From positions 1-22,786 of IMG/VR virus record IMGVR_UViG_2547132281_000007: a stretch of 22,786 nucleotides of DNA; one strand, written 5' to 3'. A program made the position numbers and the translations under genes. Origin of the DNA: a virus. Lineage: Duplodnaviria > Heunggongvirae > Uroviricota > Caudoviricetes. A model generated the notes under the pieces. The model worked only from the letters and a program-made list of their open reading frames with translations. It was not told the origin of the DNA and did not search any database. Of this stretch, positions 4,742 to 7,593 are shown piece by piece; position 1 is the stretch's first letter; every line of letters starts with the position of its first letter.

Positions 4742-4782
4742 CAGCCTGGAAAAGAAATCCGAGTTCTAATCGCTGGAGAAAA

Positions 4783-5040
4783 TTGCCTGATGGAACCATC
4801 ATTCAAATGGGAATATCAGCATCAGGGCCATTAGGCTCACCTGTAAATATCACCCTGCCGATATCTTTCAGCAATACCAATTATTGTGTTGTTGCATCGT
4901 ACGATAATGCACGGTCAGGTGTGTCAACAATGGTTAGTTTTGCAGCGTTACCTGTTTCACCATCGCAATTTTCCCTGATGTCATCTGTGACTGAGCAAGG
5001 AATAAATCCTTTTGCTTACTGGATTGCTTTTGGAGATTAA
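4783..5040 (+). pseudogene. orphan tail-fibre C-terminal cassette (alternative variable domain, 5'-truncated)
   Basis: Open frame from 4720 (TTG start annotated at 4783), on the opposite strand to the tail genes and immediately followed by a tail-fibre-assembly gene. It has no N-terminal shaft domain and no upstream crossover site; the product resembles distal tips of phage side tail fibres. Confidence 0.5.
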
Positions 5041-5043
5041 TAA

Positions 5044-5463
5044 ATGGATAGATACTTCTATTCACAAAAAGAAAATGGTTTTTTTACCGATTTAAATAAA
5101 GCACCTTCAGATGCTGTTGAGATAACCACGGATGAATGGCTGTTACTACTGGATGGTCAGGATAATGGCATGAAAATAGTCAGCAATCAGGAGGGATATC
5201 CGGTTTTGACAGAGCAACCACCTTTATCAAAAGAAAACCTTATTGCATTGGCGGATTTGAAAAAAAGAAAACTTATTAATGAAGCCAACGAGCACATGAA
5301 CAGCAGACAATGGCCAGGTAAAGCGGCTATTGGTCGTCTGAAAAGTGAGGAACTGGCGCAATATAATTTATGGCTGGATTATCTGGACGCACTGGAACTG
5401 GTTGATACCTCCAGTGCGCCAGATATTGAATGGCTTACGCCTCCGGCAGTTCAGGCCAGATGA
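5044..5463 (+). CDS. tail fibre assembly protein (alternative cassette, Tfa/U' type)
   Basis: 139-aa ORF with the C-terminal motif LVDTSSAPDIEWLTPPA typical of Tfa chaperones; sits 3 bp after the orphan fibre tip and converges on and overlaps G. Confidence 0.7.
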   Translation: MDRYFYSQKENGFFTDLNKAPSDAVEITTDEWLLLLDGQDNGMKIVSNQEGYPVLTEQPPLSKENLIALADLKKRKLINEANEHMNSRQWPGKAAIGRLKSEELAQYNLWLDYLDALELVDTSSAPDIEWLTPPAVQAR

Positions 5464-6040
5464 CATCCGGCGCGGTGCTGGTATCTGTTGCAGTCACCGC
5501 GTCAATGTAATCCAGCACGGCGTTAAGTCGGGTTGTTTCTGTCTGCGTCAGTTTACGTGCGGCCTGCAATTTCAGCTGAATCAGACTGATGGAAGCCATT
5601 GCAGCATCAATCAGTGACTGACGCTGTGCTTCTGCCGCGTCTACTGCGGCGCTATGCTGTGCCTCAGTATCGGTCACCCATTTCTCACCATCCCATTTAT
5701 CGTATGGCGTTAATGGGGCGATAGTGGTTGTATTTTCAGGGTAATCACCCGGAACTGTGATTTCTTTGGTATCTCCCGTTTCGGTACTATAGACAACTTC
5801 ACCGCGATGGTCTGGCACATATTCCCATGAGTTTAAATCTGCCGAACGACAGATTGCATAACCAGCTTTATGTGTACCTGGTGCATCCAGACAGGAACAT
5901 GCCGGGATACCGACGCCGACAGCGAGATATTCAGTTGATGTAGAAATATATTCCCGCGTTTCACCATCATAATTATAAACGGTAATATCTCCCGCTTTTA
6001 TGGCAATGAGTTCGCTATTTAATACAGCTTTATTCATCAT
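5435..6040 (-). CDS. tail fibre assembly protein (P2 gpG-like)
   Basis: 201-aa ORF with the Tfa C-terminal motif DTSTAPDVIWPELPEA; immediately downstream of H with a 4-bp overlap. Confidence 0.85.
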   Translation of the reverse strand: MMNKAVLNSELIAIKAGDITVYNYDGETREYISTSTEYLAVGVGIPACSCLDAPGTHKAGYAICRSADLNSWEYVPDHRGEVVYSTETGDTKEITVPGDYPENTTTIAPLTPYDKWDGEKWVTDTEAQHSAAVDAAEAQRQSLIDAAMASISLIQLKLQAARKLTQTETTRLNAVLDYIDAVTATDTSTAPDVIWPELPEA

Positions 6041-7593
6041 GCGGCCCTCACAATATAATTAAAAGCGATGTTACGAGGACGAGTTTCTGTACCTACATTT
6101 TCACTAATTTCACCATAACGTTTAACACTACGAGAGCTAAGAGCTCGTAGTGAGGAAGGCACCTTAAGACCGGGTTCGTCCGTTTTAACTATTCCCCCGT
6201 CACCGTATGTAGCCAGTATTCCTGGGTTTACGCCTTCCCGTGCACTTCCTGCGGCGAGTCCGTCCCCTGTCCATAATTCCATATAGTGTGCATGGTCCAA
6301 AATTGTGTGTGGCTGCCAATTAAGCAAAGCGCGACCAGTATCAATCCCGCGACCGTCATCCCAGCCACGAATAAATTCACCGCGTAAATCAGGCAATTTA
6401 TTGGTCGGGTAAGCCTTTGCCAGTTCCGGGTATTCTTCAGCAGAAAAAGCCGCACCATTGCATTTCAGCCAGCCTGTCGGCGGAGTGGCTGAAGGCCACG
6501 GAACAGGCACCCCAACCGGTAATGCAGAGCCTTCTCCCAAACCAAGGTATGTGAGAAGACCAGCTACATCCTTTCCACTCAAATTGGTAAGCGTATTGTC
6601 CAGCGGTTGTTTACCTGCCAGCGCATTAAGCATTGTCGTGGCAAAGTTCGGATCATTCCCCAGTGCCGCCGCCAGTTCGTTCAGTGTATCCAGTGCCGCA
6701 GGTGCAGAACCCACCATTCCTGCAATCGCCGATTTCACAAATGCCGTGGTGGCAATTTGTGTATTGTTGACCGACTGTGCCGCAGTAGGTGCGGTTGGCG
6801 TTCCGGTGAGTGCCGGACTCGACAGCGGCGCTTTCAGTGCCAGCGCATTGTTAATGGTGGTACTGAATTTCGGATCATTGTTAATGGCTGCGGCTATTTC
6901 TTTCAGCGTGTCCAGCGTGGCTGGCGCACCATTAATAAGAGCCGTCAGAGCCGCCTGAACAAACTCGGTGGTCGCAATCTGCGTGGTGTTATTCCCTGCT
7001 GCTGGCGTTGGCGCTTTGGGTGTCCCGGTAAACGTCGGACTTTCTTTGGGTGCATACTGTGAATGCGGGTCCGGTGCGGCAAGATGTTTTGCCATCTGAT
7101 CATCCGCGTACACCTTCAGCTCCAGTGCCTTGTCATCCACATACTTGCGGGTTGCCAGCACTACAGCAGGGTCGATTTTCAGGGTGATATTGTCCGTGCT
7201 GCTGGTAATCAGCACCATGCGCACGGTCTGAGTGCGCCCGCTACCTTCAGCCAGTTGCGGCTTATAGCTTTCCGGGCAGTTGCCCACGGCAATCAATGCC
7301 CCGGACTCATCAAACAAGCCCACTTCACGTATCCACCAACCGCCCTCGTTTTCAGGGATCACCTGTTCGGCAATAATCTGGCTGCTGTTCTGCGGGTCGA
7401 TATAAAGCATATTCAGCGCAGCCCGGCGTTTCTCATTTACCAGTGCCGTCTGCTTTGCGTCCGGCGTTGGCAATACTCCACCGCCATCGCCCACCGCCAT
7501 ATGGGTAATTTTTAGCGGCACACCGAGCGCGGCGGCGCTGGCAAGTTTCGCCGCGCCAATATCCGTCAGCAGGGTATAAAATTTTGTGCTCAT
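6037..7593 (-). CDS. tail fibre protein (P2 gpH-like)
   Basis: 518-aa ORF with a conserved P2 H-like N-terminus ([18 protein letters not shown]...), internal tandem repeats ([11 protein letters not shown] / [11 protein letters not shown]) and a divergent C-terminal receptor-binding region. Confidence 0.9.
   Translation of the reverse strand: [518 protein letters not shown]
6532..6557. other. candidate Hin/Gin/Cin-family invertase crossover site inside the tail fibre gene
   Basis: 26-bp imperfect palindrome TTCTCCCAAACC-AA-GGTATGTGAGAA (12-2-12, AA core), matching recalled hixL TTCTTGAAAACCAAGGTTTTTGATAA at 20 of 26 positions. It encodes ...TYLGLGEG... at the expected constant/variable junction of H. 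Confidence 0.5.

Follow-up and report, generated by a model that had tools for sequence, protein, structure and literature searches.

The tail-fibre locus of the window, by which we mean the whole 22,786-nucleotide stretch of viral DNA analysed here, is very probably the dead remnant of a Pin-type cassette (Din-family serine invertase) in a decaying P2/186-like prophage of Escherichia coli, located beside ybjL. It represents the ordinary prophage decay of a well-known tail-fibre flip switch and not a new system, and we observed no evidence contradicting this explanation. The prophage itself belongs to the P2/186-like phages (Peduoviridae), as its late genes, Ogr, GpA, CI/CII and integrase stand in canonical order and the window yields Pfam matches to GPD, GpU, Tail_P2_I, Baseplate_J, GPW_gp25, Ogr_Delta, Phage_GPA, the CI repressor, CII and integrase. 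Its tail-fibre region contains both tip-plus-chaperone modules, arranged in opposite orientations (Table 1). In gene H, the conserved shaft (Phage_tail_fib N-terminal domain, E=8e-65) is followed by the crossover site and by the fused tip (Collar, E=4e-15), which is 59% identical to StfE of the e14 element. The chaperone encoded by gene G is 92% identical to e14 TfaE. The alternative chaperone shares 53% identity with e14 TfaP and occurs as the same gene in the related loci L002 and L007; its gene overlaps with that of G at the latter's 3′ end. A previous sequence-only reading of this DNA had placed an alternative tip and Tfa on the opposite strand, directed toward G. Pfam bears this out for both genes, assigning a gp53-like domain to the open reading frame at 4783–5040, with homology running from 4741 onward, and Caudo_TAP to the one at 5044–5463.

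Table 1. Features of the tail-fibre cassette and of the two deletion junctions in the window.
Feature	Position	Strand	Basis or detail
Tail-fibre gene H, 518 aa; conserved N-terminal shaft, then crossover site, then fused Collar tip	6037..7593	-	Pfam
Collar-domain tip now fused to H, stfE type	6037-6531	-	Pfam, e14 comparison
Gene G, tail-fibre assembly chaperone for the fused tip, TfaE type, 201 aa	5435..6040	-	Pfam Caudo_TAP, E=2e-30
Alternative tail-fibre assembly chaperone, TfaP type, 139 aa, inverted	5044..5463	+	Pfam Caudo_TAP, E=1e-23
Alternative tip segment, 5′-truncated, gp53-like C-terminal domain	4741..5040	+	Pfam Gp53-like_C, E=6e-13
Gene U, tail protein	4262..4741	-	Pfam Phage_P2_GpU, E=3e-44
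Surviving right crossover site, pix-type, Din family (by sequence)	6532..6557		Inside H codons 346-354: TTCTCCCAAACC AA GGTATGTGAGAA
Deletion 1 junction, 3-bp microhomology TCA	4741..4743		Window vs L007 BLAST, junction sequences, alignment A1
Deletion 2 junction, 2-bp microhomology TA	9540..9541		Window vs L007 BLAST, junction sequences, L007 gene table

The H codons that read GLLTYLGLG, located where the conserved shaft gives way to the Collar-domain tip, contain the 26-mer TTCTCCCAAACCAAGGTATGTGAGAA, in which the sequence-only reading had recognized a hix/gix-like palindrome. We scored all 26-mers of the window on a 20-point match to the half-site consensus TTCTCNNAAACC, and this element reached 19/20, the runner-up being a far-away 26-mer with 13/20. 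It occurs as a single copy in the window even when up to three mismatches are allowed, shuffled sequences giving an expectation of 0. It shares the left 12 nt and the AA core with the pixL and pixR sites of e14 (table in PMC3241671) without any difference, and in its right half it is similar to that of cixR (GGTATTGGATAA). Moreover, homology to e14 stfE, amounting to 92% DNA identity over window positions 6328–6557, stops precisely at 6557. The palindrome thus has the make-up of a Din-family crossover site and, judged from its sequence, is a genuine member of the Din/Pin family.

An intact copy of the same prophage, inserted at the same chromosomal site (ybjL), is present in E. coli LD22-1 (L007) and shows the gene order ogr-D-U-T-E'-E-FII-FI-recombinase-tip'-tfa'-tfa-H-I-J-W-V...P-Q. 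BLAST aligns the window to it in four collinear blocks of 96–99.4% identity separated by two clean gaps, with 99.4% identity for window positions 6335–9541. In L007 and in two further intact relatives, L001 and L002, exactly two 26-mers stand out as most site-like, a left one next to the invertase gene and a right one in H. The sequence-only reading had recommended intact relatives as the place to look for the invertase and the second site, and in all three loci the two were found beside each other. In L001 and L002, the two loci searched for inverted repeats, the pair of left and right sites forms the strongest inverted repeat, and its right arm is identical to the 26-mer of the window. The recombinase of L007 is 86.7% identical to e14 PinE, and a relative's recombinase gives a full-length match to the "DNA-invertase" PDB chains 3uj3 and 4m6f (E=6e-93). 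Simulated inversion of L002 fuses tip' in frame to the H shaft, such that the cassette presents alternative C-termini and chaperones in opposite orientation that can be joined to one fibre gene. The flipped H–tip' junction is present in at least 19 complete E. coli genomes at 97–98% identity and 100% coverage, and the one flipped genome that we checked, that of strain 6EVA, had both the flipped gene order and the invertase. Both orientations therefore occur in relatives among complete E. coli genomes, and sequencing and PCR have demonstrated that P2-like prophages of E. coli undergo inversion (PMC4272514).

These comparisons also bear on a two-part view: that the palindrome plays no role in recombination, being mere conserved coding sequence of H for the YLGLG motif, and that the inverted tip and its chaperone are unrelated debris. 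The sequence-only reading had itself raised the first part as a possible objection. Phage P2 gives this view some substance: its H gene, which has no invertase, carries TTATCGAATATCTCGGTTTACAGGAA at the same motif (VIEYLGLQ), a degenerate, vestigial copy scoring 15/20 as compared to 19/20 in the window, so that a site-like sequence can indeed persist as coding sequence. What holds for the diverged copy of P2 is, however, very improbable for the window, whose copy is identical to the working site of L001 and L002. There, the same 26-mer is the right arm of the inverted-repeat pair bounding the segment in relatives that encode an invertase, natural isolates show both orientations and break precisely at the 26-bp site, and the end of the stfE homology coincides with its last base. 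In addition, the inverted tip and chaperone of the window are the same genes as those of the intact L007 cassette. We thus read the locus as a Pin-type cassette that has lost part of its machinery.

The missing parts are those that drive inversion. A tblastn search of the window with two relatives' invertases as queries gave a best E of about 3; no serine DNA invertase gene adjoins the segment, and none is encoded elsewhere in the window. Likewise, a mismatch search, the half-site scoring scan and an inverted-repeat search of the window all failed to reveal a second crossover site, leaving a single site where a pair of inverted 26-bp sites would bound the segment. Both absences had been noted from the letters alone, and the alignment with L007 accounts for them. 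The invertase gene sits within a 6.1-kb stretch of L007 that is missing from the window (deletion 1; 6,100 bp, L007 10625–16724), together with T, E', E, FII, FI, the left site and the 5′ end of tip'. Since L007 is 96–99% identical to the window and not its literal ancestor, the deleted length is an estimate. On one side, the breakpoint falls inside the alternative tip ORF, and on the other side in the start codons of U. The same deletion removed the genes for the tail sheath, the tube, E/E' and the tape measure, a loss that had previously been missed.

Mapping of this breakpoint settles the fate of the left site. In L007, the true left site occupies 16648–16673 and the junction corresponds to 16722, which places the breakpoint at 4741–4743 of the window 48 nt inside the site; the left site thus lay wholly within the deleted DNA. 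The sequence-only reading had instead assumed that it persists in degenerate form as TTCTAATCGCTGGAGAA at 4763–4779. This 17-mer is located one base further on, at 4764–4780, and its best 26-mer scores 9/20, a value equalled or exceeded by about 890 of the 22,761 26-mers of the window. It is unchanged in L002, L004 and L007, and in L007 the true left site is found 72 nt farther out. We therefore rejected 4764–4780 as a site remnant: it is tip coding sequence (SSNRWRK) with a background score, and the left site, rather than having degenerated in place, was removed entirely by the deletion.

Din-family invertases occasionally delete DNA between directly oriented or pseudo sites, and GGAGAA at 4775–4780 looks like the outer end of a half-site. 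One might thus suppose that recombination by the invertase between the left site and a pseudo-site close to U gave rise to the deletion and left 4764–4780 behind as a hybrid or degenerate site. The breakpoint mapping refutes this scenario, to which we assign next to no probability. The break lies well inside the left site and not at it, the 17-mer is the unaltered, background-scoring sequence of intact relatives, the U-side breakpoint (CCATCA/TCATGCG) is devoid of site-like sequence, and the junction displays 3 bp of microhomology only. Because the deletion joined such a short microhomology and made no use of a crossover site, it was not the work of the invertase; replication slippage or illegitimate recombination would account for it. 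The 42-mer spanning the junction had 0 matches in the species-representative genome, metagenome and viral contig collections, and 0 of 5,426 complete E. coli genomes spanned the junction, so that the deletion appears private to this strain or lineage. As the junction is not located in a repeat, an assembly error is unlikely.

The deletion damaged the genes on both of its sides. Of the 133-aa alternative tip ORF of the relatives, the first 34 codons are lost and 99 codons are left, and the translation in the window equals L007 tip' from residue 35 on, in frame. ORF 4783–5040 is thus a 5′-truncated pseudogene fragment, and without these 34 codons the silent tip could no longer be fused to H. Gene U, now directly adjacent to the alternative tip, is missing its ribosome-binding site and the first two of its Met codons. 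In L003 and L007, U starts 6 nt farther upstream (ATGATGATGGTG); the window retains ATGGTG only, and its copy of U is without its translation signals.

A second gap relative to L007 (deletion 2; 7,366 bp, L007 21526–28891) extends the decay beyond the tail. It takes away V in large part, then S and R, the lysis genes, X, L, M, N and O, and finally the 5′ portion of the terminase gene P. Compared to L007, the virion gene set of the window is incomplete by all of these genes as well as by T, E, E', FII and FI. Having lost T, E, FII and FI and the whole head and lysis module, the prophage cannot build a tail or a virion alone, and the 7.4-kb deletion of head and lysis genes marks it as cryptic. 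The sequence-only reading had described the fibre as locked in one orientation. This stands insofar as the invertase and one site are lost and the segment should be unable to invert, but it understated the damage, given that tail, head and lysis genes are gone too.

The closest known system is the Pin/P segment of e14 in E. coli K-12 (stfP-tfaP / tfaE-stfE, pinE), in which two tips and two chaperones likewise lie tail to tail between 26-bp pix sites. Whereas e14 keeps pinE and both sites, and its P segment still inverts (PMC4272514), the window is without the invertase and one site. Furthermore, e14 is a lambdoid element whereas the window element is a P2/186-like myovirus prophage, and the alternative tip of the window is a gp53-like domain with weak similarity to e14 StfP. 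Phage backbone and gene order are instead shared with the invertible cassettes of P2-like elements, such as Escherichia phage 500465-1, the prophages of E. coli LD22-1, DEC5E and 6EVA, and the P2-like prophages of EPEC E2348/69. These retain FI, FII, E, T, the invertase and the left site, compared to which the window is a deleted derivative. The Mu G segment with Gin and the P1 C segment with Cin belong to the same mechanism class, using a Din-family serine invertase and 26-bp sites, and resemble the window in having sites at the constant/variable fibre junction and an alternative tip and chaperone. They differ in residing in other host phages, in the right halves of their sites (cix/gix table) and in their invertase, which the window lacks. 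The layout of Mu G- or P1 C-segment type that was initially proposed is supported by the intact relatives, and is more exactly of the e14 P-segment type. Finally, the tail operon of phage P2 is built in the same way (H-G-...-FI-FII-E-T-U-D), but fun(Z) fills the slot between G and FI, and there is no alternative tip, chaperone or invertase.

We propose the following course of events. In the intact ancestor, an invertase gene would have been located between the tail-sheath gene FI and the cassette, and two inverted 26-bp pix-like sites would have enclosed a segment of roughly 1.85 kb with a tail-to-tail arrangement of two tips and their two chaperones. Inversion should have exchanged the tip-plus-chaperone pair fused to the constant H shaft, and may thereby have changed the host range. 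A 6.1-kb deletion between 3-bp microhomologies, probably illegitimate in origin, then brought the start of U next to codon 35 of the silent tip. In the Hin, Gin and Cin systems, the Fis-dependent recombinational enhancer acts in cis and resides in the 5′ part of the invertase gene; by analogy, an enhancer within the invertase gene of the ancestor would have been lost as well. With no partner site, invertase or enhancer left, the segment would be fixed in the orientation that fuses the stfE-type Collar tip to H.

Outside the window, the genome could contain an invertase able to act in trans, together with pix sites at a distance, such as those of e14. One may thus ask whether the orphan site, which is intact and matches working sites base for base, can still be used in trans, with the invertase of another prophage (e.g. 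e14 Pin) recombining it with distant pix sites and causing large chromosomal inversions or deletions. Din invertases do complement one another, two of them reportedly acting in Salmonella flagellar phase variation (a study cited in PMC4272514), and many E. coli carry several such cassettes, with up to 9 matching places per genome. Inversion of the Hin/Gin type, however, normally depends on a pair of sites and an enhancer that share one supercoiled domain in cis. The local enhancer would have disappeared along with the invertase gene, and no trans rearrangement was seen within the window; we find ongoing activity of this kind scarcely credible. That the intact orphan pix site, held by the H reading frame, could serve as a latent target for a trans invertase such as e14 Pin is a very long shot. 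If it did, recombination with other pix sites might produce large inversions or deletions, or an infecting P2-like phage might capture the tip module.

For the dead Pin-type cassette, the persistence of the right site is readily explained by its place within the reading frame of H. A crossover site can thus outlive its own recombinase when it doubles as coding sequence, which also explains why H genes that do not invert, that of P2 among them, contain site-like palindromes. The two junctions provide a clean, base-resolved case of prophage decay through microhomology-mediated deletion. Beyond this, the locus is of little importance other than for its correct annotation as the remnant of a cryptic P2-like prophage whose Pin-type tail-fibre switch is disabled.

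The window is Escherichia coli chromosome; several complete E. coli genomes match its positions 1-3200 at 100% identity, and a P2/186-like prophage spans from about 2856 to the window end. A complete copy of this prophage, at the same chromosomal site and with the same cargo genes, is present in E. coli LD22-1. Aligning the two by megablast yielded four main collinear blocks, leaving 6087-6334, a stretch within the tip-coding part of H, without an alignment; past 19159, three shorter blocks of 90-100% identity follow, which have no bearing on either deletion described here. The immunity/integrase region (window 19500-22745, LD22-1 38551-43599) is 90-94% identical with unaligned stretches, compared to about 99% for the rest of the prophage. 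In LD22-1, two additional ORFs separate CI from int, and CI comprises 293 aa vs 191 aa in the window, a pattern suggestive of mosaic exchange in the immunity module.

Features of the window and main blocks aligned to the intact LD22-1 prophage
Feature	Window	Strand	LD22-1	Identity
grxA, ybjM, ybjL, phage ogr gene, 3' end of D	1-3200
ogr	2856-3107	minus
D	3165-4265	minus
U	4262-4741	minus
gp53-like tail-fibre tip fragment (ORF between U and G)	4783-5040	plus
Caudo_TAP chaperone (between U and G; overlaps 3' end of G)	5044-5463	plus
G	5435-6040	minus
H	6037-7593	minus
I	7590-8195	minus
J	8188-9135	minus
W	9083-9442	minus
Terminase fragment and portal gene Q	from ~9594 to 11464	plus
Two cargo genes (between Q and replication gene A)	11534-14054	minus
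Replication gene A (followed by dam and cII)	15025-17439
CI (20763-21338) and integrase		plus
Aligned block	1-4743		5882-10624	98.8%
Aligned block	4741-6086		16722-18066	96.0%
Aligned block	6335-9541		18319-21525	99.4%
Aligned block	9540-19159		28890-38509	98.8%

In two intact relatives, Escherichia phage 500465-1 and the prophage of E. coli DEC5E, the gene order is D-U-T-E'-E-FII-FI-invertase-[left site-tip'-tfa'-tfa-tip-right site]-H shaft, where tip' and tfa' denote the silent tip and chaperone, and the pair of 26-bp sites is the strongest inverted repeat in both. When the DEC5E segment was inverted in silico, an in-frame fusion of H shaft and alternative tip resulted. At least 19 complete E. 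coli genomes contain this flipped junction (97-98% identity, full coverage), and strain 6EVA, the one checked, has the flipped gene order beside a recombinase gene; both orientations are thus present among relatives. For P2-like prophages of E. coli, inversion has been demonstrated experimentally (PMC4272514). The right arm of the repeat is identical to a 26-mer of the window, TTCTCCCAAACCAAGGTATGTGAGAA at 6532-6557, which is single when up to 3 mismatches are allowed (0 expected from shuffles) and scores 19/20 against the half-site consensus TTCTCNNAAACC, the runner-up among the 22,761 26-mers of the window reaching 13/20. It forms codons 346-354 of H (GLLTYLGLG), between shaft and Collar-domain tip; e14 pixL and pixR, which PMC3241671 lists alongside other Din-family sites, share its left 12 nt and AA core exactly. 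Given the flipped junctions and the 6EVA gene order, this type of 26-mer is a real crossover site in the phage group, and it persists in the window because it is H coding sequence.

The single Hin/Gin-type site in H and the inverted alternative tip and chaperone that the sequence-only reading had proposed are therefore real, and the absence of an invertase was confirmed as well: tblastn with the invertases of two relatives gave no match in the window (best E about 3). The comparison with intact relatives that it had called for recovered both the invertase and the second site in 500465-1, DEC5E and LD22-1. Relative to LD22-1, the window has lost 6,100 bp (deletion 1) containing T, E', E, FII, FI, the recombinase gene, the left site (LD22-1 16648-16673) and codons 1-34 of the alternative tip, and U has been stripped of its ribosome-binding site along with the two initial Met codons. 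A deletion made by the invertase itself was considered and rejected, since the breakpoint falls 48 nt inward of the left site, and on the U side no sequence resembles a site. The junction instead carries a 3-bp microhomology (TCA, 4741-4743), and deletion 1 is, as judged from this sequence, a product of illegitimate recombination. What orphaned the cassette was mundane, a deletion at microhomology that took four essential tail genes with it as the prophage decayed. As its junction 42-mer was absent from collections of species-representative genomes, metagenomes and viral contigs, and the junction was spanned by 0 complete E. coli genomes, deletion 1 seems confined to this strain or lineage. 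A degenerate left site had also been proposed, and this reading is wrong. The best 26-mer of TTCTAATCGCTGGAGAA (4764-4780) scores 9/20, which is background, and the same 17-mer is tip coding sequence in DEC5E, LD22-1 and another intact relative, lying in LD22-1 72 nt inside the real left site.

In the Hin, Gin, Cin and Pin systems, a serine invertase brings the two sites together with an enhancer bound by Fis, and strand exchange takes place at the central AA. By analogy, swapping the tip-plus-chaperone module joined to the H shaft would change host range. With the invertase and partner site gone, and the enhancer inside the invertase gene presumably gone too, inversion in cis would be impossible in the window. 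Judged by these missing parts, the fibre switch is fixed in the orientation in which H bears the stfE-type Collar tip.

Among named systems, the e14 P segment with Pin comes closest. TfaE is 92% identical to G, StfE 59% to the fused tip and TfaP 53% to the alternative chaperone, while e14 stfE DNA is 92% identical to window 6328-6557, the homology ending exactly at the site. PinE is 86.7% identical to the LD22-1 invertase, which also aligns along its whole length with the PDB 'DNA-invertase' chains 3uj3 and 4m6f (E=6e-93). Phage P2, in contrast, has no invertase, and fun(Z) occupies the cassette slot. At the same YLGL motif, P2 H carries a degenerate site-like sequence, TTATCGAATATCTCGGTTTACAGGAA (1858-1883 of the P2 sequence, 15/20), which presumably has about three mismatches to the opposite strand of the Mu gix site. 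It has the appearance of a fossil crossover site retained as coding sequence. Its presence in an H gene lacking an invertase indicates that palindromes can survive as coding sequence after loss of the switch, and this is what happens in the window.

Between W and the terminase fragment, the window lacks a further 7,366 bp that LD22-1 has, with a 2-bp microhomology (TA) at 9540-9541. This second deletion takes most of V, then S, R, the lysis genes, X, L, M, N, O and the 5' part of the terminase gene P. A 241-aa minus-strand ORF without a Pfam match (9519-10244) is probably not a gene, since it crosses this junction and is antisense to the terminase fragment. Owing to the two deletions, the element is a cryptic prophage, unable to make tails or heads.

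Independently decayed copies of this prophage type occur in E. coli VE-V11-M (2856-17504), where a single deletion at the same ybjL site runs from inside T to inside P, and in E. coli UR21/11-869 (9289-11607), where truncated P adjoins J and an intact invertase cassette remains. Head and lysis genes are gone from all three remnants, the window's included, and the 3' part of P, Q and the early region persist; the shared pattern may stem from an interval prone to deletion or from selection to retain cargo and early genes. The interval between Q and A, the variable cargo slot of P2-like phages, contains in the window a 372-aa DUF2971 protein matching the PADLOC candidate defence family PDC-S31 (E=1e-23) and a 394-aa protein with 0 Pfam or PADLOC matches, a pair also found in LD22-1. 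In UR21/11-869 the slot contains SIR2 and ATP-binding protein genes, and in VE-V11-M a TIGR02391-family gene.

Set against the features of the Din invertible-segment family, the window retains the site consensus and the alternative modules and lacks an invertase and paired sites. The main reading, an orphaned invertible cassette, is right, and the window is a decayed ex-member of this family: a known system undergoing ordinary prophage decay, nothing new in kind.
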